Positions 3,299 through 57,527 of a stretch of DNA of 64,000 nucleotides are shown piece by piece. The position numbers were made by a program, and so were the translations under genes. Position 1 is the stretch's first letter, and every line of letters starts with the position of its first letter. The stretch is from the NCBI GenBank assembly GCA_021513695.1, contig CP084166.1, positions 128,001 to 192,000 of the forward strand, in the 5' to 3' direction. This stretch comes from Candidatus Heimdallarchaeum aukensis (GTDB taxonomy: Archaea; Asgardarchaeota; Heimdallarchaeia; Heimdallarchaeales; Heimdallarchaeaceae). A model generated the notes under the pieces. The model was not told the DNA's origin and made no database searches. It saw only the letters and a program-made list of their open reading frames with translations.

Positions 3299-6200
3299 AT
3301 GAGTATAAAAAGCAAAAAAATTTTTTTGTCTTTTATTATTATTATGTTTATTACTTTAACAATAAATAGTGTAAAAGCTGAAGAGCAAGCAGCTCCTATT
3401 TTATATACGAAGTATTCTTCTTACACCAATATAGTTGAGTCAGTTTTTGACGAGAATAATCAAATGCATATTTTTCTCGGTCGTTCAGATGAATTTAATT
3501 ATAAAATCTTACATATCTTTAATGGAGAAGCGATACTCATTGATGCTGGTGTAAATAACATAGAAAGATTTTTCAAAGCAAAAATCTTCCCTGGAGGAGT
3601 TGCATTATTCTATTTAGATCACGATATTACAAAAGGAGATACATTATACTATTATTATTATTTCATAAATAACGGTTCACATGGCCTCAAGGTAATAACA
3701 AAATCAGGATTAGCATCTAATTATAAAATCAATATATTTCAGGATAACTCCAGATTTACAATTATTACTTCGTATAGTATTTCCTATTATACAAGTGCAA
3801 TAAAAAGCTTTAACTGCAGTTTTAGCGGAGAAATTTTAGACTCTGAAAGTTATGATGTTGAAGTCTCAATTTACAAGATAAAAGGATTCGTCTTTCAGAA
3901 TGAAAAAATATTCTTTTATTTTTACAAAGATGTTTATAACGCTAGTGCTTACCTCTCTTTTCTCTATGTTCAAGGGATAAACGAAAATGGACATATTTTC
4001 AATTCGAGCGTAATTGAATATCCTAATAGTTATTCAGAAACAATTATAACGCAAGGAATCAAAAAAGATTTTTATATCCAAACTATACAAGATGGTCAAA
4101 TTTTTTATTATTCTTTTAATGAAAATGAGACTTTTAGTTTCAGTGACTATAATTCTGCAGATTTTTATATTTACTATTATAACGAATATTCTATCGAGTA
4201 CACAGGTAATTGGATAAACACGACTTTCATAGAGTATGAATACATGTATTATAGTGACTTCTCTTATTCTTCAACTATTAACATTTTAGCTATCGTTACT
4301 TCATATAATTCAGAACAAATGTTGTTTGCAAAATTTGAAAAAACTATAACTTTTCAAGAAAGCTTTTTCCAATACTCAGTAGACATTGCTCTCGATGGTC
4401 CTTATTATTATATGTTTATTGCCACTAAAAGTACTGAAAAAATCCACTTTAATGAAACTGAAGTTTTAGGATTATATGTTCTCACAGATGATCCTAATTT
4501 TGTTCCACCTAAAGAACCAATATACTATGAAATCAAGCATATCTCCAATTTTACCTATTTCATGAAAAATTATTGGTGGACCCTTTTAATCGGTTTCGGT
4601 TTCATTGGTGGAATGTACGGTATTTTCCACAAGAGGATTAATAAGTCAATTCGCAAAATGAAAAAATTCCTGTTAAGACCTGTTGTGGACAATGTTTCTA
4701 CTGCTAAACTAATTTTAATCAACATTTGGCTATTTTTCTTTAATACTTATAGTTTAGTTCTTTCTTTGTGGAGAGTTAATAAAAAAAGACTAATAATAAA
4801 CATTCTTGGTCTTTCAATTCTTGCGTTTGTTCTGATAAACACTTCAGTACTTTATAATTCAGAACAGGCAACTGTTCTTCAGAAATATTTTGACAACCAT
4901 GACTTTGGTTCTAATTATGATACTTCTGTAGATTTTACAAAGACATTTATTGAACAATCAAAAACCGCTGAAAATATTTCCTTAATTAATGAAAATTATA
5001 CTTTATTAGCTGCAGAAGATATAATGAAATCTTTGAAACAAAAAGCTCCTACTTTAGCTTCCTTAATAGTTGATTATCAACTAACCAGTTTAATTACTAT
5101 CACAGGTTCAAACGTTACTTACGGAAATGAAGATATTCAATATTATTCAATAAACTCAAGCTATAATTTTGTTTTACAATCACTACTAGTTAATGGTACT
5201 TTGCCTAATAAAAAAGGAGAAGTAATTGTTTCTAGTAGTGTTGCTGAATATTATGACTTTCAAGTGGGTGAAGTAATACAATTTCAAGCAGTAAGCTATA
5301 AAGGTGCTTTCCTAAATTATGATGTAGTCAACCTAACTGTTTCTGGAATTTTTTCTAGTATTGGTTACAATACTTTGCGACAACTATGCGCAGATAATGA
5401 TCTACCATTTGATCCTGTTAGATATCTTACCTCTAACATGTTTTCAGCTATCGCTTTTAACAAATACTTCTTAAAAAATCTAGAAAATATCTCTTTAGGA
5501 CAACTAACCTTGTACGGAGATTTAGAGTTTATTTATGACTTTTCTTCGCTTGATCTAGAATCCTTTGAAAAACTAGTTGAAGAATATGAGTATTTAACTG
5601 AAAATCCTACTCAATACTTTAAATTTGATCCCAATGGTACCTGGTCATTAAGTTACGAGTTACGATATGTTATAATATATTTCCAATATGACCTAATAAT
5701 CATGCGGTTTTTAATCTATTTACTAACAATACCTATAGTCTTCTTAGCTTTATTTTTATTAAGTGAAGTTAACTCTATCTTTGCTTCAAGTTTTAAACAA
5801 GAGATAGAAATATTACAATCCCAAGGATTATCTGTTGGAAGAATAACTTTCATTTATTCTTCAATGAAATTCGGAGAGTCAGTTGTTGGAACAGTATTTG
5901 GACTTCTTGGAACATTTATATTTACACCAATTCTTTTAAAAGTTGATAAATTTCTACAATTTACGAACCCAATTTATCATTTTACTTTAAAGGGTAGCTT
6001 ATCTACAATTTTCATAACCTTTTTTGCTTTAATCATAGCTTCTCTCCCTCGAATTATTAGATTGGCAAAACAATCTGAAAAGAAACAAAAAGAACCAAGA
6101 AGATTTGTAACTCTAATAAAACGATTAAGAATACATTACTTTTTAGTCGTTATTTTTGGCGGAATTATTGCTTTCGGGGGATATTATTTAGCTGCTATTT

Positions 6201-41208: not shown

Positions 41209-42174
41209 CTATTCTCCCAAATTTTTTCTCCAGTTGTAATCTTCTTTTGCTATCAGTGTAACAGCAGAATCTTCTTTTGAATCGATGATTTTTAATTCTG
41301 TATTTTCTATAATCTTCTTTGAAAATTCTAGTATTTTTGGGTACCTTGGCATTATTTCATAAGGTAACCTTTTTCTTGCGTCTCCAACACTCATAAAACC
41401 TTTTACTTCTAGAAAATGAGCTTCTGATCTTAAAAATAATTCAGCAAAAGCTTCTGGTTCGACTAAATTGTAGTTTTCATCTACTAAAGTTAATCTTATA
41501 ACTTTTCTAGTGTTAAGCGAAGGAAGTAATTCAATTGTTTCCATCACTTTGTTCCATAGATTTGAAAAAGAAGGACGAGCAGTTTTTTTGAAACTTTCTT
41601 CAGTAGGGGCAATTAGAGTAACATAGAGTTGAGTAGGAAGAGGGTCAAGTTTCTTCAACATTTCAGGATTAGTGCCATTAGTTACTAGAAAAGTAGTCAT
41701 ATCACGATTGTGGAACTCTTGAATTAATTCTGGTAACAAAGGATAGAAAGTTGGTTCTCCACTTAAAGAAATTGCAGCATGTTTTGGATTGTAAGCTTCT
41801 TCATATAATCTTGGTTCTACTTTTGGATGATTTTTGAATCCTGCAATTAGTCTTCTTTGATGTTCTATCATTTGATCAATAATATATTCCGGTTTGTCAA
41901 CTTTTCCTCTCATTAATTCTTTGTTGTACCATGATGCACTTCTCCAGCAAAAAACACATTTTAGATTACACCATATTGTTGCAGGAGTACATTGAAGACA
42001 ACGGTGAGAAGCTATTCCGTAAAATTGTTGTTTATAGCAAAAACCTTCTCCTTTTAACGCGTGCTTTAACCAGGTGCAAATTTTTACTGCAGAGTGATTA
42101 CCAGCTATTCTGTACTGTTGTTTTTCTAGTTTGTCTTTCAATTTTGGAGGAATAATGTTTGTATTTAAACTCAT
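41209..42174 (-). CDS. taw1: tRNA 4-demethylwyosine synthase Taw1 (archaeal TYW1, radical SAM), intact copy
   Basis: GNHSAVKICTWLKHALKGEGFCYKQQFYGIASHRCLQCTP followed by the radical SAM cluster CNLKCVFCWR. The protein is 321 aa. Confidence 0.9.
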   Translation of the reverse strand: MSLNTNIIPPKLKDKLEKQQYRIAGNHSAVKICTWLKHALKGEGFCYKQQFYGIASHRCLQCTPATIWCNLKCVFCWRSASWYNKELMRGKVDKPEYIIDQMIEHQRRLIAGFKNHPKVEPRLYEEAYNPKHAAISLSGEPTFYPLLPELIQEFHNRDMTTFLVTNGTNPEMLKKLDPLPTQLYVTLIAPTEESFKKTARPSFSNLWNKVMETIELLPSLNTRKVIRLTLVDENYNLVEPEAFAELFLRSEAHFLEVKGFMSVGDARKRLPYEIMPRYPKILEFSKKIIENTELKIIDSKEDSAVTLIAKEDYNWRKNLGE

Positions 42175-42301
42175 TAGATTTACTTATTTTTCTTTATTTT
42201 TAGACTTTATCTTTATTGAAATTTTTTTTGATTAAATTTACTATAAAATTAACAAAGGAAAACAATAGATTAAAATATTTAAAAAATTAAAATATACTGA
42301 T

Positions 42302-43417
42302 ATGGTTAGTATTAAAAAAGTTCTCAAGCAACTAGAAGATTCTGATCCTATAGTTCGAAGAGATGCAATACTTACTCTTGGAGAACTAAAAGACGAAAAA
42401 GGGGTTGATCCTTTAATTAAGTGTGTTCAACAAGAAATAAAAGAAAATAGAATCACCGCTATTGTTGCACTTTCAGATATTGGAGATCATAGGGCTATTG
42501 AAATATTAATCTACTGTTTAATGGATGATGATGAAGAAATAAGACTTGCTGCTGCTCGAGCTTTAGGACGATTTACTTCTCCTCAAGCTATCACTACTTT
42601 ACTTGTTTCATTAAAAAAAGACCCAAGTGTGAGAGTTAAGAGTCGTGCAGCTCTATCTTTAGGGAGTATTGGTTCAGAACTGCCTGTTGAAGAATTACTT
42701 AAAGAATCTAAATTAGAACACCCAACCACTCTTCTTTATTCTATAAATTCTGCTTTGACAATGATAGCAAAGAAAAATGGTTATAGTTCAGTAGATGAAC
42801 TTGTTCAAAAAATAAGGGCTAAAAAGGCAGAAGTAGATGAGAAAACACCAGAGCATAAACAAATTCAGGAGAAAGAAGAGCTCGAATCTTTTCCTCGTTT
42901 ATATGACTACATTAGAAAATATGTAGCTCGAGAACTAGAAGGGGTACAAACAGTATTAAGTATTAACTCAGATGAAAAGACTGCATCAAAGAAAATAGCT
43001 GATATTTTAGCAGAAAAATTCTGGAAATTTGCTGAATGGATCGGAAAAAGAATGGGACATAAATTAACTGAATATCAATCTGATTTGCTCTGGCAGATGA
43101 TATGGGATACATCAAGGCCAATTAGAAATGAAATTTACCAAATGATAAGAGATCATCGCTCAGAATTAGAGGAATTAAATCGATTCCAGAAATGGCTCAA
43201 CAAAATAGAAGAACAAAAAGAAGAAGAAATCGTTAAAGATATTGAAAGAAGCAGACCTAAACCCATTATTCAAACTTCAAATAATGTGAAAAAAGACGAA
43301 GCAGAGACAATTAGAGCTGCAGATTTGGCAAGAAGTATTTCTTCAAATCTTGAAGAAATAATGGGCAAATATTCTAGTTGGAAAACAAGAGAGTTAAAAG
43401 ATGAAGAAGATTATTAA
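42302..43417 (+). CDS. HEAT-repeat (PBS-lyase type) protein with C-terminal charged coiled-coil region, copy A
   Basis: LEDSDPIVRRDAILTLGELKDEKGVDPLI, IGDHRAIEILIYCLMDDDEEIRLAAARALGRF, KKDPSVRVKSRAALSLGSIG. Confidence 0.7.
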   Translation: MVSIKKVLKQLEDSDPIVRRDAILTLGELKDEKGVDPLIKCVQQEIKENRITAIVALSDIGDHRAIEILIYCLMDDDEEIRLAAARALGRFTSPQAITTLLVSLKKDPSVRVKSRAALSLGSIGSELPVEELLKESKLEHPTTLLYSINSALTMIAKKNGYSSVDELVQKIRAKKAEVDEKTPEHKQIQEKEELESFPRLYDYIRKYVARELEGVQTVLSINSDEKTASKKIADILAEKFWKFAEWIGKRMGHKLTEYQSDLLWQMIWDTSRPIRNEIYQMIRDHRSELEELNRFQKWLNKIEEQKEEEIVKDIERSRPKPIIQTSNNVKKDEAETIRAADLARSISSNLEEIMGKYSSWKTRELKDEEDY

Positions 43418-43542
43418 GCTTCTTTAAAATTCTGAAAATTGCCAAAAAAATTTTTCTAAAACAATTTTTTATTATTTATTAATTTTCGTAATACCTTGCT
43501 AATACTAAATCCTTCACGACAAAAACATATTTATTTCTGTTT

Positions 43543-43565
43543 ACAATTGTGATATAGTAGATATC
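43543..43565. promoter_or_regulatory. Palindromic elements directly upstream of the RHH gene (candidate operator); duplicated at 46891-46913
   Basis: ACAATTGT (43543-43550, a perfect palindrome) is followed by GATAT-AGTAG-ATATC (43551-43565, 5-bp inverted arms). They end 4 nt before the ATG at 43570. RHH regulators typically bind repeats in their own promoters. Confidence 0.3.
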
Positions 43566-43569
43566 TAAG

Positions 43570-43779
43570 ATGGAATATGGGGTTAATATGAAAAAAAAGC
43601 TGATTACATTTAAAGTAACAGAAGCTATGATGAAATGGATAGCAGAAATGATGGAAAAGGGGAATTATAAAAATAGAACAGAATTAATTGTAGATGCTCT
43701 TAGAGAGTTTCTCATCCAAGAAAGAATGGTTGAAGATCAGGAAGAACTAGAAGCAATTTTTGAAAGAATTGATGAATAG
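43570..43779 (+). CDS. Ribbon-helix-helix (CopG/Arc-like) DNA-binding protein, copy A
   Basis: KKLITFKVTEAMMKWIAEMMEKGNYKNRTELIVDALREFLIQE follows the beta-alpha-alpha RHH pattern (compare ...ggysnRSElireAlreyL). The likely true start is the second ATG (MKKKL) at 43588. Confidence 0.7.
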   Translation: MEYGVNMKKKLITFKVTEAMMKWIAEMMEKGNYKNRTELIVDALREFLIQERMVEDQEELEAIFERIDE

Positions 43780-43821
43780 TTCTCTTATAACTCCTTCTGT
43801 ATTTCTGTTATTTTAGCCCTA

Positions 43822-44629
43822 TTATTCAAACCAATACATAGATGTTTTTTCGAAACATTCTTTTGTTAAATTTTGTGAAAGCTTAAAATAATTAGTAACT
43901 TTTTTATCTATCCTTTTTCTGAAAATCACTGCTTGATTAAAATCTCTATCTGATTTTATCCAGTTTTTTGTAATTTCTTTCATTGTTACCCAGATATCAG
44001 AGGAAGGAAAAGGGATTGGTATCTCTCTAAAAAGGTTTGAAGTTATGTCTCTTACAATAAAACTTTCTACTATAAATTGAACAAATGAGGAGGAAAGATA
44101 ACCAAACAACCCATAAAGGTCTATTTGTTCATCAGGAATTATGATGTCAAAAATGTCGTTTACGTAATAGCCTTCTAGGTCCAAACCAATAAAATACTTC
44201 TTTCCTCTATTTCTACGGACTATTTTTGGTTTTTCAAATATTTGATGATCTCCTGGTGCTCCTAATACTTTTCTGTCATAAATTATTTTTTCTTTTCCTG
44301 GAAAAACTTCAAAGTTTATGACACCTTCTTTGTAATTATTTGAAAAGATATTGTGTCTTACTATTTCTACAGATTTAATTTCATTTGAATATTTCTTTTT
44401 TTTAATATACTTCTCTTTGTATCTCTTTGTTATCGTTAATCCTCGTCTAATAAAAGAATGTTCTTTTAATTTAGGGTAATTATTCAGGATAGTGCTGATT
44501 TCCTTTTGACTTTCAGAACTAAAATTTGAAAAAAGAAAAAGAGGAGGGAAAATGAAGCTATAGTCTATTTTGTGTTCATGATTATCTTTTCTTTTATGAA
44601 ATTTAATGTAATTACTTTCGTTTTTTAAA
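43822..44629 (-). pseudogene. 3' fragment (~268 codons) of the N6-adenine DNA methyltransferase gene, truncated at the duplication junction
   Basis: Identical to 47170-47977. It lacks the start codon, the SAM-binding motif and NPPW. Track ORF 43822-44184 (identical to the last 120 residues of the 663-aa protein except Leu544 read as Met from the TTG start) is only its tail. Confidence 0.8.
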
Positions 44630-45524
44630 AATCGATGATTTTTAATTCTGTATTTTCTATAATCTTCTTTGAAAATTCTAGTATTTTTGGGTACCTTGGC
44701 ATTATTTCATAAGGTAACCTTTTTCTTGCGTCTCCAACACTCATAAAACCTTTTACTTCTAGAAAATGAGCTTCTGATCTTAAAAATAATTCAGCAAAAG
44801 CTTCTGGTTCGACTAAATTGTAGTTTTCATCTACTAAAGTTAATCTTATAACTTTTCTAGTGTTAAGCGAAGGAAGTAATTCAATTGTTTCCATCACTTT
44901 GTTCCATAGATTTGAAAAAGAAGGACGAGCAGTTTTTTTGAAACTTTCTTCAGTAGGGGCAATTAGAGTAACATAGAGTTGAGTAGGAAGAGGGTCAAGT
45001 TTCTTCAACATTTCAGGATTAGTGCCATTAGTTACTAGAAAAGTAGTCATATCACGATTGTGGAACTCTTGAATTAATTCTGGTAACAAAGGATAGAAAG
45101 TTGGTTCTCCACTTAAAGAAATTGCAGCATGTTTTGGATTGTAAGCTTCTTCATATAATCTTGGTTCTACTTTTGGATGATTTTTGAATCCTGCAATTAG
45201 TCTTCTTTGATGTTCTATCATTTGATCAATAATATATTCCGGTTTGTCAACTTTTCCTCTCATTAATTCTTTGTTGTACCATGATGCACTTCTCCAGCAA
45301 AAAACACATTTTAGATTACACCATATTGTTGCAGGAGTACATTGAAGACAACGGTGAGAAGCTATTCCGTAAAATTGTTGTTTATAGCAAAAACCTTCTC
45401 CTTTTAACGCGTGCTTTAACCAGGTGCAAATTTTTACTGCAGAGTGATTACCAGCTATTCTGTACTGTTGTTTTTCTAGTTTGTCTTTCAATTTTGGAGG
45501 AATAATGTTTGTATTTAAACTCAT
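44625..45524 (-). CDS. taw1: Taw1 duplicate, C-terminally truncated at the duplication junction (last 23 residues replaced by Phe-stop)
   Basis: The first 298 residues are identical to 41209-42174. The frame then crosses the junction at 44629|44630 and terminates. It is unknown whether the product is functional. Confidence 0.6.
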   Translation of the reverse strand: MSLNTNIIPPKLKDKLEKQQYRIAGNHSAVKICTWLKHALKGEGFCYKQQFYGIASHRCLQCTPATIWCNLKCVFCWRSASWYNKELMRGKVDKPEYIIDQMIEHQRRLIAGFKNHPKVEPRLYEEAYNPKHAAISLSGEPTFYPLLPELIQEFHNRDMTTFLVTNGTNPEMLKKLDPLPTQLYVTLIAPTEESFKKTARPSFSNLWNKVMETIELLPSLNTRKVIRLTLVDENYNLVEPEAFAELFLRSEAHFLEVKGFMSVGDARKRLPYEIMPRYPKILEFSKKIIENTELKIIDF

Positions 45525-45649
45525 TAGATTTACTTATTTTCTTTATTTTTAGACTTTATCTTTATTGAAATTTTTTTGATTAAATTTACTATAAAATTAA
45601 CAAAGGAAAACAATAGATTAAAATATTTAAAAAATTAAAATATACTGAT

Positions 45650-46765
45650 ATGGTTAGTATTAAAAAAGTTCTCAAGCAACTAGAAGATTCTGATCCTATA
45701 GTTCGAAGAGATGCAATACTTACTCTTGGAGAACTAAAAGACGAAAAAGGGGTTGATCCTTTAATTAAGTGTGTTCAACAAGAAATAAAAGAAAATAGAA
45801 TCACCGCTATTGTTGCACTTTCAGATATTGGAGATCATAGGGCTATTGAAATATTAATCTACTGTTTAATGGATGATGATGAAGAAATAAGACTTGCTGC
45901 TGCTCGAGCTTTAGGACGATTTACTTCTCCTCAAGCTATCACTACTTTACTTGTTTCATTAAAAAAAGACCCAAGTGTGAGAGTTAAGAGTCGTGCAGCT
46001 CTATCTTTAGGGAGTATTGGTTCAGAACTGCCTGTTGAAGAATTACTTAAAGAATCTAAATTAGAACACCCAACCACTCTTCTTTATTCTATAAATTCTG
46101 CTTTGACAATGATAGCAAAGAAAAATGGTTATAGTTCAGTAGATGAACTTGTTCAAAAAATAAGGGCTAAAAAGGCAGAAGTAGATGAGAAAACACCAGA
46201 GCATAAACAAATTCAGGAGAAAGAAGAGCTCGAATCTTTTCCTCGTTTATATGACTACATTAGAAAATATGTAGCTCGAGAACTAGAAGGGGTACAAACA
46301 GTATTAAGTATTAACTCAGATGAAAAGACTGCATCAAAGAAAATAGCTGATATTTTAGCAGAAAAATTCTGGAAATTTGCTGAATGGATCGGAAAAAGAA
46401 TGGGACATAAATTAACTGAATATCAATCTGATTTGCTCTGGCAGATGATATGGGATACATCAAGGCCAATTAGAAATGAAATTTACCAAATGATAAGAGA
46501 TCATCGCTCAGAATTAGAGGAATTAAATCGATTCCAGAAATGGCTCAACAAAATAGAAGAACAAAAAGAAGAAGAAATCGTTAAAGATATTGAAAGAAGC
46601 AGACCTAAACCCATTATTCAAACTTCAAATAATGTGAAAAAAGACGAAGCAGAGACAATTAGAGCTGCAGATTTGGCAAGAAGTATTTCTTCAAATCTTG
46701 AAGAAATAATGGGCAAATATTCTAGTTGGAAAACAAGAGAGTTAAAAGATGAAGAAGATTATTAA
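45650..46765 (+). CDS. HEAT-repeat protein, copy B (identical translation to 42302-43417)
   Basis: The 371-aa translation is identical to copy A. Confidence 0.7.
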   Translation: MVSIKKVLKQLEDSDPIVRRDAILTLGELKDEKGVDPLIKCVQQEIKENRITAIVALSDIGDHRAIEILIYCLMDDDEEIRLAAARALGRFTSPQAITTLLVSLKKDPSVRVKSRAALSLGSIGSELPVEELLKESKLEHPTTLLYSINSALTMIAKKNGYSSVDELVQKIRAKKAEVDEKTPEHKQIQEKEELESFPRLYDYIRKYVARELEGVQTVLSINSDEKTASKKIADILAEKFWKFAEWIGKRMGHKLTEYQSDLLWQMIWDTSRPIRNEIYQMIRDHRSELEELNRFQKWLNKIEEQKEEEIVKDIERSRPKPIIQTSNNVKKDEAETIRAADLARSISSNLEEIMGKYSSWKTRELKDEEDY

Positions 46766-46917
46766 GCTTCTTTAAAATTCTGAAAATTGCCAAAAAAATT
46801 TTTCTAAAACAATTTTTTATTATTTATTAATTTTCGTAATACCTTGCTAATACTAAATCCTTCACGACAAAAACATATTTATTTCTGTTTACAATTGTGA
46901 TATAGTAGATATCTAAG

Positions 46918-47127
46918 ATGGAATATGGGGTTAATATGAAAAAAAAGCTGATTACATTTAAAGTAACAGAAGCTATGATGAAATGGATAGCAGAAATGAT
47001 GGAAAAGGGGAATTATAAAAATAGAACAGAATTAATTGTAGATGCTCTTAGAGAGTTTCTCATCCAAGAAAGAATGGTTGAAGATCAGGAAGAACTAGAA
47101 GCAATTTTTGAAAGAATTGATGAATAG
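46918..47127 (+). CDS. Ribbon-helix-helix DNA-binding protein, copy B
   Basis: The 69-aa translation is identical to copy A. Confidence 0.7.
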   Translation: MEYGVNMKKKLITFKVTEAMMKWIAEMMEKGNYKNRTELIVDALREFLIQERMVEDQEELEAIFERIDE

Positions 47128-47169
47128 TTCTCTTATAACTCCTTCTGTATTTCTGTTATTTTAGCCCTA

Positions 47170-49161
47170 TTATTCAAACCAATACATAGATGTTTTTTCG
47201 AAACATTCTTTTGTTAAATTTTGTGAAAGCTTAAAATAATTAGTAACTTTTTTATCTATCCTTTTTCTGAAAATCACTGCTTGATTAAAATCTCTATCTG
47301 ATTTTATCCAGTTTTTTGTAATTTCTTTCATTGTTACCCAGATATCAGAGGAAGGAAAAGGGATTGGTATCTCTCTAAAAAGGTTTGAAGTTATGTCTCT
47401 TACAATAAAACTTTCTACTATAAATTGAACAAATGAGGAGGAAAGATAACCAAACAACCCATAAAGGTCTATTTGTTCATCAGGAATTATGATGTCAAAA
47501 ATGTCGTTTACGTAATAGCCTTCTAGGTCCAAACCAATAAAATACTTCTTTCCTCTATTTCTACGGACTATTTTTGGTTTTTCAAATATTTGATGATCTC
47601 CTGGTGCTCCTAATACTTTTCTGTCATAAATTATTTTTTCTTTTCCTGGAAAAACTTCAAAGTTTATGACACCTTCTTTGTAATTATTTGAAAAGATATT
47701 GTGTCTTACTATTTCTACAGATTTAATTTCATTTGAATATTTCTTTTTTTTAATATACTTCTCTTTGTATCTCTTTGTTATCGTTAATCCTCGTCTAATA
47801 AAAGAATGTTCTTTTAATTTAGGGTAATTATTCAGGATAGTGCTGATTTCCTTTTGACTTTCAGAACTAAAATTTGAAAAAAGAAAAAGAGGAGGGAAAA
47901 TGAAGCTATAGTCTATTTTGTGTTCATGATTATCTTTTCTTTTATGAAATTTAATGTAATTACTTTCGTTTTTTAAATCCATTGATAACAAAAAGAATTC
48001 ATTGGAAACGTCTTTAAAGGAATAATCTAAATCTGTGTAAATTTCTACATCATATCTATTATCTTTGAGGTGTTTTCTCCATTTCTTGCCATAAGTATCA
48101 GTTATGATACCTGAAGGTAATATTAATCCTACTTTCTCTTTGGATAAACTTTCTGCAATGATCAAAAAAGGTAGAGCAAAATTATATTTTCCAAAGATTC
48201 TATTTTTATAAGGTTCTCTCTTTAAGAATTCTTTATATCTATTATTTATTTTTTTATATTCTATCCACGGTGGATTTCCAATAACAAAATCAAAAAATTT
48301 TTTCTGAAGACTTAAACTTTCATCAAAAAATATTTCAGGCAAATCAACAAAAAAGCTAAATTTGGATAGAGAAGGATATTTCTTCGATATTTCATCTCTT
48401 TTTGTTAAACATTCTTTTATATCTTGAAAAGAAATTTCTTTTTTACCAAATATCACTTCTCTTCTTTTTTCACGAAGTATCGCTAAAAGTTTCAAAAAAG
48501 TTGTATTTTTTCTTTCTGACATTTGCTTTATTATTCTTTCATCATAACCAAGAATGCTATCTCCGTATTTTGAGATTAAAGGAAGTAATTTTCTTTTTCT
48601 ATTATCTTGTAACATGAAAAAGAGTTTGAAAACTTGAAATTCATAAATAAATGGATCAACTTCAACTGAATATGGCATAATCTCTTGTTTTTCAAAAGCT
48701 GGGTAGAGAAAATCTCCTATTCCTGAAGAAATATCGATAACTGTTTTAGTTTTTTTAGAATTGTTACTCAAAATATCTAATAAATCATATACCTTTTTAA
48801 CAAGAATCCTATTAGTAAAATATTGACCTGTTAATCTCGTTTTATCTTGAATAAGTGATAAAATATTAACTTCATTTATTGTCTTGATTATATTTTTGAT
48901 TTGTTCAAAAACCCAAACTGGTAACTTTTTTTCTAGAACTCTGAGTTTTTCTAACGATAGAAGTATTTGCTTATCATCTTGATTTAGATTAACCAGATTT
49001 ATTAACGAAGTTTTTTGTTGATTTTGTTCAGATGAAAAGGATGAAGAATTGTAAATAAAGTAAAACTTTACTATCATCGATTTTAATTCATTAACTGAAA
49101 CTTTGTACCTACTAGCCTTTTTCTGAATTCTACTATGTAGATTTTCCTCTTTTATTTCCAT
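47170..49161 (-). CDS. N6-adenine DNA methyltransferase (gamma-class, Eco57I/TaqI-like) with C-terminal target-recognition region
   Basis: Motif order X-I-IV: GQYFTNRILVKKVYDLL, VIDISSGIGDFLY (SAM-binding), FDFVIGNPPWIEYKK (NPPW catalytic). I could not see a PD-(D/E)xK nuclease motif. Confidence 0.85.
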   Translation of the reverse strand: MEIKEENLHSRIQKKASRYKVSVNELKSMIVKFYFIYNSSSFSSEQNQQKTSLINLVNLNQDDKQILLSLEKLRVLEKKLPVWVFEQIKNIIKTINEVNILSLIQDKTRLTGQYFTNRILVKKVYDLLDILSNNSKKTKTVIDISSGIGDFLYPAFEKQEIMPYSVEVDPFIYEFQVFKLFFMLQDNRKRKLLPLISKYGDSILGYDERIIKQMSERKNTTFLKLLAILREKRREVIFGKKEISFQDIKECLTKRDEISKKYPSLSKFSFFVDLPEIFFDESLSLQKKFFDFVIGNPPWIEYKKINNRYKEFLKREPYKNRIFGKYNFALPFLIIAESLSKEKVGLILPSGIITDTYGKKWRKHLKDNRYDVEIYTDLDYSFKDVSNEFFLLSMDLKNESNYIKFHKRKDNHEHKIDYSFIFPPLFLFSNFSSESQKEISTILNNYPKLKEHSFIRRGLTITKRYKEKYIKKKKYSNEIKSVEIVRHNIFSNNYKEGVINFEVFPGKEKIIYDRKVLGAPGDHQIFEKPKIVRRNRGKKYFIGLDLEGYYVNDIFDIIIPDEQIDLYGLFGYLSSSFVQFIVESFIVRDITSNLFREIPIPFPSSDIWVTMKEITKNWIKSDRDFNQAVIFRKRIDKKVTNYFKLSQNLTKECFEKTSMYWFE

Positions 49162-54797: not shown

Positions 54798-55625
54798 ATG
54801 ACATCTAATTTTGAGTATTTTAAAATATTAAAGCCTGTCTTAGTCACTGGAGGAATGATATTAAACCTCATGAGAGGAAAAGTAACTAATCAACCAAAAG
54901 AAAGTGATCTCCCTCCAGAATTGGTTAAAGAAAGCTCTACTGCTCACACAGAAATTGACGACTTTGTACAAGATATAGCCCTCGAAATTCTCCATTCTTC
55001 TTTACCAGATATTGGAATAAATGCAGAAGAAGTTACAGATAGAGTAAAATGGTTTAAACAAGACAAAACAGGACTCTGTTTTCATCTAGATCCCTTAGAT
55101 GGGACGCTGGCATATACAAAAAATAGAGAAGATTTTGCTATTGGTGCAGCTTTATCTGACAAATTAAAATTTATAGCCAGTGGGATATACTTTCCTGCAG
55201 TTGATAGACTTTTTTACGCAGAAAAAGGAAAAGGTGTTCTAGTTATTAATAGTTTAGGAGAAAAGATTTCATTCACTAGACCTTCCTCACCAGAAAAAAA
55301 ATATGCGCAAAAAAGATGTGATGAGTATGTTCCCATTCTAGAAAAATTAGCTTTTACAAAGCTAGATTCAATGAGTGCTCATCATAGTATGATTTCTATC
55401 CTAGAAGGAAAAGCTGCAATTCAGATGTATCATATGGCAAGCCCTCATGATTTTGGAATTCCTCAACTAATTCTTGAAGAAGCAGGAGGAATATGTACTG
55501 ATCTTGAAGGGAAACCAATAAAATATGACCCAGACTTTAATAGAGTGCCCTACTTCCTCGCTTTCTTTGATACTAAAATCAAGGACTTATTTTTCAAAGA
55601 AATAGAGAGAAGTAAAACATTGTAG
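54798..55625 (+). CDS. Inositol monophosphatase / CysQ superfamily phosphatase
   Basis: Metal-binding motif FHLDPLDGTLAY (the DPxDGT motif), and the C-terminal motif region SPHDFGIPQLILEEAGG (corresponding to WD.AAG..I..EAGG). Confidence 0.7.
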   Translation: MTSNFEYFKILKPVLVTGGMILNLMRGKVTNQPKESDLPPELVKESSTAHTEIDDFVQDIALEILHSSLPDIGINAEEVTDRVKWFKQDKTGLCFHLDPLDGTLAYTKNREDFAIGAALSDKLKFIASGIYFPAVDRLFYAEKGKGVLVINSLGEKISFTRPSSPEKKYAQKRCDEYVPILEKLAFTKLDSMSAHHSMISILEGKAAIQMYHMASPHDFGIPQLILEEAGGICTDLEGKPIKYDPDFNRVPYFLAFFDTKIKDLFFKEIERSKTL

Positions 55626-55652
55626 ATGACTTATTTTTTTACGTAAGTTTGT
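55626..55652. repeat. Left inverted repeat / junction of the TnpB element (contains TTACGTAA at 55639-55646)
   Basis: See the mobile_element entry. The 16-nt core ttttttacgtaagttt is a perfect reverse complement of 57466-57481. Confidence 0.75.
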
Positions 55653-55809
55653 AAAAATTGAGGGAGAATTGAATGTAAAAAAAGAAAAAGGAAAGGAGGA
55701 AGGGAGTGGAAAGGAAAATGATGGCTTTTTATAGGGAAAAAAAGTATAAGTAAGTAAGAAGAGAAGAAGAAAACCAAAGAAAGAGAAAATAGAAGGAGAA
55801 AAGAAAGAG

Positions 55810-57255
55810 ATGGAGGCCGTCGTCAAAACCTTGAAAGTGAGAATAAAGAATGAGGTATTGACGACAAGGAAGAAGGAAAGGTTAAGGAGAATAACAGGAA
55901 GAGATACGAGAATAATAGAAAAGTATGTGAGAATAATACACCAAAATAGAAAAAAAATATGTATAAGAACTAAAAAAGGGAAAATAAGAGTACATAGAGG
56001 AAAATTAGACGATTTAACATTAACTACTTCAAGAGTAAAAGAAGAAGAGAGGAGAAAGACTTTTCCTCACGACCTTAAGAAAATGTTCCCCTATTGTTCT
56101 CACAATGAGTTTCAAGAGTGTAGAGATATAGCTGTACAACTATATAAACAATGGTATAGACCTAACACCACTCGTCCTCCAATAAAGAGAGCGAGAAGAC
56201 AACTAATTAATGGAAAGAGGTTCATCCTCATCCATCTACCAAAAGAAAAGAATAACACTCTCACTCGTTGGTGGGTAGGAATAAGAGACTCGTTAGACAC
56301 TTGGAAAAGAAATACCCCCTATCATCAGAAGTTGTGGTTACCTTTAGAGATGAGCGATTTCCACCAGAAAGAGTTAAAAAAAGGACAGATAAAAGGTCTA
56401 GAACTGCGATACAAACGTTCTACAAGTGAGTGGTGGGTATATTTTCAACTAAAAGTTCTTCCTCCTTCTTCTTTTCTAAGCGATAATTCCTCTTCTTCTC
56501 TTCCTCCAGCTGTGCTGGGAATAGATCTGGGGATAAACATTCCTGCTGCAGGAGTGTTACTAACCCCTAAAAAGAAGTTAACTATTAAACAGATAAAATT
56601 CTAGTATACCAAACAGTGGAATATAATCAATCATAGATATAAACTCAAACTTTCCCGTCTTCAGAGGAAAGCGGCTTTAAACGACCAGTCGGGTAAAAAA
56701 CACCAAGTTTATCGTTTTCTTGGTCTTCTTCGTCGGAGATATAGAAACGTTAAACTGGCGTATATCCACCAATTTGTAAACGATGTTGTGCGGACAATAG
56801 AGACTTATGCACAAGTGTATGACCTTTTCGTCGTCGTAGGTTATCCTAAACATATCCGTGAAGAGAAAGGAAAAGGGAAAGTTTCTCGTCAATTTCGCAG
56901 AAAACTTCATCAGTGGAACTATGCTCTTGTTCTTGGTCTTCTCCGTCGGGCATTAATATTAAGAGGTTTCGAATCTCACCGTATTCTCACTTTAGACGAA
57001 AGAGGAACATCCTCTCACTGTTCTCGTTGTGGAACGAAAGTCTCTCGCCCTGTCAGAGGGTTAATCTCTTGTTCTTCTTGTAATTACACTTTCCACTCTG
57101 ACCTCACAGGAGCAATGAATATCGCTCGAAGGTTCCTTGGTCATCTTTTCCGTCCTCGTGCAACAACTATTACTGACCACCTTACTGGCTATAAATTCAG
57201 TCTCACCCATTTCACTGTTTGCCAAGGGCTCAGCCATTGGTTGCAGTCCCAGTAG
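55810..57255 (+). pseudogene. tnpB: TnpB-like (IS605 OrfB / RNA-guided nuclease family) gene interrupted by one in-frame TAG
   Basis: Track ORFs 55810-56604 and 56788-57255 are in the same frame. Codons 56605-56787 are also open and read YTKQWNIINHRYKLKLSRLQRKAALNDQSGKKHQVYRFLGLLRRRYRNVKLAYIHQFVND... RuvC-I is GIDLGINIPAAG. The zinc finger is CSRCGTKVSRPVRGLISCSSCNY. RuvC-III is FHSDLTGAMNIARRF. The single stop is TAG at 56602-56604. Confidence 0.8.
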
Positions 57256-57463
57256 ACAAAAAAAGAAACTAATTACTCTTATCTTTGAGGATAGTTATCT
57301 TTTTTTGTCTCTCGTGGAGCGAAGAAAAAGTTCCTTTCTTCTTTATGATTCCCACGATTCGTGTATGATGTCTGTCTCAACCCCTTCTTTCATTGTATGC
57401 TCTGGTTGAGTTCGCAAGAGATCAAACTCTCTTCTAGTTTTTTCTCTTGAAAGACTGAGTGCG

Positions 57464-57490
57464 AAAAACTTACGTAAAAAAGTAAATCAT
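57464..57490. repeat. Right inverted repeat / junction of the TnpB element (contains TTACGTAA at 57470-57477)
   Basis: Reverse complement of 55626-55652 at 24 of 27 positions. Confidence 0.75.
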
Positions 57491-57527
57491 GAAAAAGAGT
57501 TAAAATCTTCTTTGTTTTTTTTTTGAT

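Follow-up and report, generated by a model that had tools for sequence, protein, structure and literature searches.

TnpB proteins normally carry the catalytic glutamate of RuvC-II on strand β4, within a motif of the form hhhhE[DN]L, yet a rearrangement that places an alternative glutamate elsewhere is already known and is widespread among TnpBs, including archaeal ones (PMC10691335, PMC10530073). In the RIIr clades of Altae-Tran et al. (2023), a glycine stands at RuvC-II and the compensating glutamate resides on β5 rather than on β4 (PMC10691335), and Yoon et al. (2023) defined the alternative glutamate (Ealt) as one located six residues before the first CxxC (PMC10711439). TvTnpB, an archaeal TnpB of the alternative-glutamate type, cuts DNA and shows no collateral activity, and an E467A mutation in ApmFNuc, the mimivirus Fanzor, abolished cleavage (both Jiang et al. 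2023, PMC10530073). Cryo-electron microscopy showed Glu467 to be part of the metal-binding triad, at a site shifted ∼50 residues downstream relative to the canonical one (PMC11832414). Here, we examined a tnpB gene of the Asgard archaeon Candidatus Heimdallarchaeum aukensis, which carries a glycine at the canonical RuvC-II site as well as an internal TAG codon, and which lies in a stretch of 64,000 nucleotides (GenBank assembly GCA_021513695.1, contig CP084166.1, positions 128,001 to 192,000 of the forward strand; hereafter, the window). This locus is very probably an inactivated copy of a tnpB-only element, knocked out by a TGG-to-TAG change at Trp265 and now drifting, whose TnpB belongs to the alternative-glutamate class, with Glu397 in the catalytic triad. 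All coordinates below are window positions on the + strand, unless stated otherwise.

The residues expected at the RuvC active site were compared across an alignment of 58 full-length relatives from Heimdall- and Thorarchaeota, reaching down to 31% identity. In the window protein, the RuvC-I catalytic aspartate, Asp239, lies in GIDLG (56524-56526); the C4 zinc finger, CSRC...CSSC, comprises Cys404, Cys407, Cys421, and Cys424 (57019-57081); and the RuvC-III catalytic aspartate, Asp431, lies in HSDLTGAMNIA (57100-57102), for which the family consensus reads NADLNGAxNIA. Both aspartates, all four zinc-finger cysteines, and Glu397 are invariant (58/58 relatives each). The canonical RuvC-II glutamate is absent from the window copy and throughout the family; its position, at the end of β4, is occupied by Gly344 (GGT, 56839-56841), within LFVVVGYPKHIR, and this residue is Gly in 57 of the 58 sequences and Ser in the remaining one. 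Profile alignments to Cas12f and TnpB chains support this placement, in that the IQMEDL strand of AsCas12f aligns on Gly344 within one residue; the HMMER register is off by one at this point, and a one-residue shift restores the I/I and R/R matches. A preliminary description of this DNA had assigned the same glycine to the canonical glutamate site and had listed GIDLG, CxxC...CxxC, and HSDLTGAMNIA as present, and our alignments and translation agree with it on both points. On the sequence evidence, Gly344 is a family-wide conserved trait and not a sign of decay.

Glu397 (56998-57000), within LDERGTSSHCSRCG, is located 53 residues downstream of Gly344 and six residues ahead of the first CxxC, and would be the compensating catalytic glutamate, in the arrangement known from Ealt, TnpB2, and RIIr proteins. 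Consistent with this, the Ealt pattern of Yoon et al., D{P}Gx(120,160)Ex6CxxCx(12,18)CxxCx(4,8)D, matches window residues 239-431, and it also matches 53/58 relatives; in an enlarged set of 122 full-length members, a slightly loosened form of the pattern was found in 116, and the β4 motif Gly in 113. Further, a profile search of 1.84 billion protein representatives was evaluated by tallying its best 150 matches with a recognizable zinc finger, among which (i) 72 combine the Gly motif with a Glu at −7, (ii) 8 combine a canonical hhhE[DN]L with Pro, Ala, or Thr at −7, and (iii) 0 carry both. A glycine paired with Glu at −7 and the canonical glutamate are strict alternatives, as would be expected if one carboxylate substitutes for the other. 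A rearranged RuvC-II glutamate was among the possibilities raised in the preliminary description, which pointed to acidic residues found 7-8 positions after the glycine; the rearrangement itself is well supported by the Ealt pattern at Glu397, whereas those acidic residues, in REEKG, were ruled out as the compensating glutamate, because their columns vary freely among the 58 relatives. As a separate observation, a number of long relatives (P0276-P0283 and others, 550-670 residues) aligned to the profile in two separate segments, and the pattern used picked up no CxxC...CxxC in them; these proteins may lack the zinc finger or be rearranged in some other way.

The AlphaFold model of the intact orthologue (mean predicted local distance difference test score [pLDDT] 82.7; predicted template modeling score [pTM] 0.65) has its strands in RNase-H order. 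In this model, Asp239 ends strand 233-239, Gly344 lies at the end of strand 338-345 (β4), Glu397 comes directly after strand 392-396 (β5), and Asp431 starts helix 430-447, a predicted topology that corresponds to the one described by Altae-Tran et al. for the Gly-substituted RIIr clades (PMC10691335). We propose that the RuvC triad would consist of Asp239 on β1, Glu397 at the end of β5, and Asp431 in RuvC-III, with a glycine at the former glutamate position on β4. Intact members of the family are predicted, from this conservation and by analogy with the published work on ApmFanzor2 and TvTnpB, to be RNA-guided DNA endonucleases.

The window protein is a TnpB relative by family model, by profile, and by fold. 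Namely, (i) Pfam PF07282 matches it with 37.4 bits (cutoff, 26.3), covering residues 392-438; (ii) its profile matches Cas12f and TnpB chains of solved structure, with E-values down to 8.5e-19; and (iii) the best Foldseek matches of the model are AsCas12f, OsCas12f, ISDra2 TnpB, and the Fanzor2 protein ApmFz2. Among described proteins, the Ealt, TnpB2 (Jiang et al. 2023), and RIIr TnpBs, to which TvTnpB of Thermoplasma volcanium (Glu323) belongs, share with the window family the β4 Gly and the invariant Glu six residues before the first CxxC, as well as the RuvC-I Asp, the C4 zinc finger, and a RuvC-III of the NADxN type; they are, moreover, likewise mobile, multi-copy, and mostly tnpB-only. 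This likeness holds at every sequence criterion tested, and the class is the closest known kind. What sets the window family, with proteins of ∼480-560 residues, apart from other Ealt TnpBs is that it has so far been found in Asgard archaea only, the named matches being from Heimdall-, Thor-, and Promethearchaeota; as every named match in these searches is from Asgard archaea, the branch is apparently Asgard-restricted. Our literature search found no paper specifically on this Asgard Ealt TnpB branch.

The relocated glutamate is also a feature of Fanzor2 (ApmFz2, PDB 9B0L) and of the cyanobacterial pro-Fanzors, in which the catalytic glutamate has moved in the same way as in the window family. 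Fanzor2 further resembles the window protein in its TnpB-like fold (Foldseek E = 5e-11) and in a profile match to 9b0l (E = 7e-10). However, the defining DPG of Fanzor and pro-Fanzor RuvC-I is replaced by DLG in the window family, where DPG occurs in 0/58 and 0/122 sequences. The IS607 serine recombinase or eukaryotic transposase that goes with Fanzors and pro-Fanzors was not found beside the copies inspected, and the hosts are Asgard archaea rather than eukaryotes or viruses. By sequence as well as by fold, the window family is closer to Cas12f than to Fanzor2, whereas Fanzor1 matched weakly by fold and was not found by sequence. A Fanzor ancestry was considered and rejected, given the DLG in place of DPG, the Cas12f-type best matches, and the barely detected Fanzor1. 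The preliminary description had suggested that a rearranged glutamate would be notable in an Asgard-like host; the host does belong to the Asgard archaea, but with the rearrangement widespread in TnpBs and the family devoid of DPG, the Asgard setting adds little.

Translation of 55810-57255 yields 481 codons and a terminal TAG, with codon 265 as the sole internal stop. The open reading frames (ORFs) 55810-56604 and 56788-57255 lie in one frame and are separated by 61 codons that contain no stop, in agreement with the earlier report of a single TAG (56602-56604) in a 481-codon TnpB frame. The N-terminal ORF corresponds, at 100% identity, to UJG40991.1 (K9W45_00690), which is annotated in GenBank as a hypothetical protein of the closed 3.08-Mb Ca. 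H. aukensis genome. Codons 1-264 (55810-56601) encode the WED/REC region and the RuvC-I strands, while codons 266-481 and the stop codon (56605-57255) are no longer translated together with the N-terminal part. The truncated 264-residue product retains RuvC-I and loses Glu397, the zinc finger, and RuvC-III.

The premature TAG (56602-56604) differs from a Trp265 TGG codon by a G-to-A change at 56603. The orthologous locus, L012, is found on a metagenome contig (JGI/NCBI) from a sister population and has the same gene order as the window (TPR, Oxidored_FMN, Inositol_P, tnpB, PHP, sulfotransferase), with 98.99% identity across 9,446 bp and zero indels. Its tnpB (encoding P0001) is intact, and codon 265 is TGG (Trp); P0084 is a second intact allele (3 further metagenome-assembled genomes [MAGs]). 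Position 265 is Trp in 9/9 close homologues and Phe, Ile, Leu, or Val in distant ones, and strand 262-265 of the orthologue model ends with this residue. Because the orthologues have TGG and the homologues have Trp or hydrophobic residues at this position, the TAG is, as judged from these comparisons of sequence, a nonsense mutation (G to A) confined to this genome. Other copies, in which the preliminary description proposed to look for the TAG, include at least 4 intact paralogues in H. aukensis and a mixed population of 11 copies in H. endolithica (5 intact, 4 with frameshifts, 1 with a late stop, and 1 reduced to a fragment), as is usual for insertion sequences.

The substitutions in tnpB point in the same direction. 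Between the window and L012, the gene shows 8 nucleotide differences, 7 of them non-synonymous and 1 synonymous, versus 28 non-synonymous and 43 synonymous differences in the six flanking genes (Fisher p = 0.019). When polarized with P0084 and the rest of the family, Asp68, Phe85, Lys113, Gln261, the stop at 265, and Thr409 prove to be derived in the window copy; position 85 is an invariant Val among the 58 sequences. We regard the window copy as a young pseudogene, recently knocked out and drifting, and not as recoded, read through, or exapted, and the full-length protein would no longer be made from it since the recent change at Trp265. Decay, which the preliminary description offered as one explanation, thus applies to the TAG, where the orthologue has TGG and the window copy carries extra derived missense changes, and does not apply to the glycine, which is shared by 57/58 family members. 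We also noticed that the 421 non-coding nucleotides of the element (55625-55809 and 57256-57491) are exactly the same in the window and in L012, beside the 8 differences in tnpB and ∼1% in the flanking genes, a sample too small to infer that the RNA and the ends are under selection.

The gene lies in a tnpB-only insertion element of 1.87 kb (55625-57491), outside of which similarity drops sharply in alignments of 11-12 copies; the left edge is at 55625 or at 55629, depending on whether a (C/G)ATG is counted as part of the element. Its left terminal inverted repeat, GATGACTTATTTTTTTACGTAAGTTT (55625-55650), matches the opposite strand of the right end at 23/26 positions, with 0 such matches expected by chance, and pairs with the right terminal inverted repeat (57466-57491, − strand), which ends in GTAAATCATG in all copies. 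Inverted repeats also bound other members of the family, namely the H. endolithica copy L008, where they are 31 nt long and run from CATG to CATG (2848-2878 and 4658-4688), and the ∼44-45% identical member L137, where they are 19 nt long (3932-3950 and 5668-5686). In the Heimdallarchaeum subfamilies, (C)ATG is present at both junctions, and all ten H. endolithica copies compared read (C)CATG on the left and TCATG at the end. This (C)ATG may be a target or target-adjacent motif (TAM), or else a short duplication, and the one empty site fits either.

That empty site is found in L013, a contig of a related Heimdallarchaeaceae MAG (GCA_054387635.1, JBQSKD010000140.1), where Inositol_P and PHP lie 24 bp apart (3976-4001). 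It reads CGTTGATT joined to AAAAAGAGTT, with GTTGATT followed by AAAAAGAG around the join, while the window at the same site reads GTAGATG, then the element from ACTTATT... to AAATCATG, and then AAAAAGAGTT. Since the same site is empty in L013, this is a genuine insertion, specific to its lineage. The flanks of the H. endolithica copies were also compared with the window for more empty sites and showed no synteny with it. In the two Heimdallarchaeum genomes, transposases and integrases were assigned to 11 families, with copy numbers as high as 27 for some of them (Wu et al. 2022, PMC8813620); the window element is a member of a repeated family of this kind. We propose that it would be a non-autonomous, tnpB-only insertion element of Ca. 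H. aukensis.

Outside the coding region, two parts of the element stand out by their conservation. Upstream of tnpB, TTTTTATA (55726-55733), an archaeal motif resembling a TATA box, lies ∼80 nt ahead of the start codon and is nearly invariant across the aligned copies; the same CTTTTTATAGGGAAA motif recurs in L137 (about 3963-3977), the protein of which is only ∼44-45% identical. It is likely to be the archaeal TATA/BRE (TATA box and transcription factor B recognition element) promoter of the element. Downstream, the 236 nt past the stop codon are strongly conserved across copies, and a candidate ω-RNA (57217-57491) overlaps the 3′ end of tnpB and reaches the right end of the element. Of the 79 pairs in the consensus fold of this 3′ region, 6 show compensatory changes, and the single-sequence fold has a z-score of −3.79; an Rfam search with the 3′ RNA returned no matching family. 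Such a conserved, structured region would fit an ω-RNA that takes its guide from the flanking sequence beyond 57491. By analogy with described systems, this RNA could then guide cutting at sites that match the right flank and lie next to a CATG-like motif.

The classical IS200/IS605 TnpBs (ISDra2 TnpB, PDB 8EXA/8H1J) and miniature Cas12f have the same domain order, fold, zinc finger, and RuvC-I and RuvC-III as the window family, and the IS200/IS605 elements share with it a conserved structured RNA at the 3′ end of the gene, extending up to the right end of the element. In contrast, IS200/IS605 elements have (i) a canonical RuvC-II glutamate in their TnpB, (ii) a Y1 TnpA, and (iii) asymmetric ends with subterminal hairpins and no inverted repeats, whereas the window element has no tnpA and is bounded by terminal inverted repeats of 26-31 nt, with (C)ATG at both junctions. 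Across the family, the inverted repeats at the ends are 19-31 nt long, in place of asymmetric ends of the IS605 type, and such inverted-repeat ends are unusual for tnpB-only elements.

We weighed the reading of the locus as an inactivated copy of an alternative-glutamate element against three rival explanations. Pyrrolysine or programmed read-through might decode the TAG, so that full-length TnpB would still be produced and perhaps regulated, and the TAG is indeed the sole interruption of a frame that is fully open downstream. TAG recoding occurs in some Asgard lineages and methanogens. However, the TAG is not conserved, with TGG in the orthologues and hydrophobic residues in the homologues at position 265; no tRNA was found within the window; and the extra derived missense changes fit a loss of constraint. 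Moreover, TAG is the terminator of 11/47 long ORFs in the window, both immediate upstream genes included; it is therefore not sensible to read it as recoded, and TAG is an ordinary stop codon in H. aukensis, which makes decoding of the TAG extremely unlikely. The TAG could also stem from a wrong base at 56603 in the assembly or consensus, or represent a minor allele, in which case the gene would be intact in the real population; a one-base difference from the intact orthologues and the metagenomic derivation of the genome (PMC8813620) speak for this, and to that extent against a knocked-out copy. Yet the genome has been circularized and curated (PMC8813620), the deposited record annotates the truncated 264-residue ORF, and five other derived amino-acid changes relative to the two intact alleles mark a truly distinct, diverging copy, so that we consider such an error improbable. 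Finally, the glycine might be the sign of a TldR-like exaptation, in which a nuclease-dead TnpB binds DNA or regulates genes under RNA guidance, a derivative that was also envisaged in the preliminary description; the canonical RuvC-II glutamate is absent across the family, and exapted inactivated TnpBs are known (PMC10691335). This explanation is contradicted by the invariant Glu at the exact published Ealt position, by the intact RuvC-I, RuvC-III, and zinc finger, whose aspartates and four cysteines are retained in 58/58 sequences, and by the strict exclusivity among relatives of Gly with Ealt and canonical Glu without it. Further, multiple copies, both intact and decayed, at unrelated sites, with sharp ends and an empty site, are the mark of a mobile element rather than of a fixed host gene, and no conserved neighboring gene that could be a partner was found next to the copies inspected. 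We judge a nuclease-dead regulator very unlikely.

Several observations nevertheless weigh against an inactivated alternative-glutamate tnpB element of an otherwise mobile family. The NCBIfam model guided_TnpB scores the window protein at 82.4 bits, which is below its cutoff of 100. The predicted nearness of Glu397 to the RuvC aspartates is judged by secondary-structure position alone, and its equivalence to Glu467 of ApmFz2 comes from coordinate arithmetic only (profile position 399 corresponding to chain position ∼467, assuming no net indel). The non-synonymous excess in tnpB is based on just 8 differences. As for mobility, the inverted-repeat ends are unlike the classical IS200/IS605 ends, and no transposase gene was found beside any copy inspected; mobilization would therefore have to occur in trans, by some other enzyme. 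A metagenome scan with the end-repeat pattern CATGNTTTACTTTTTNCG for an autonomous partner yielded, among the matches listed, only one true family member, L131, which is a contig-end fragment, the rest being chance matches. One could go further and view the Asgard-restricted, inverted-repeat Ealt TnpB family as a separate, so far undescribed transposon type, mobilized in trans by a transposase that acts on double-stranded DNA (a DDE enzyme or an Asgard Cas1, for example), which we hold to be very unlikely.

Elsewhere in the window, positions 41280-43852 and 44630-47200 form a 2,573-bp direct repeat with 99.92% identity, the starts of which lie ∼3.35 kb apart. Each of the repeat copies contains an identical 371-residue ORF (42302-43417 and 45650-46765), which is HEAT-repeat-like by eye only, and part of a minus-strand ORF. 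This direct repeat looks like a very recent segmental duplication.

While the case matters little beyond annotation, it does call for K9W45_00690 and the unannotated ORF downstream of it to be merged into a tnpB pseudogene, and it cautions that a "missing glutamate" in such a protein is not to be read as inactivation. The family also provides a clean comparative illustration of an arrangement, with Gly on β4 and Glu on β5, that is strictly alternative to the one with the canonical glutamate. P0001 and the paralogues in the two closed Heimdallarchaeum genomes could be of use as small Ealt-type nucleases that lack collateral activity. The inverted-repeat ends with their (C)ATG junctions raise a small question about the movement of tnpB-only elements in Asgard archaea; if the family were truly a separate transposon type, a Fanzor-style active site and symmetric transposon ends would already have occurred together in those archaea that are closest to eukaryotes, which would bear on the origin of Fanzors.

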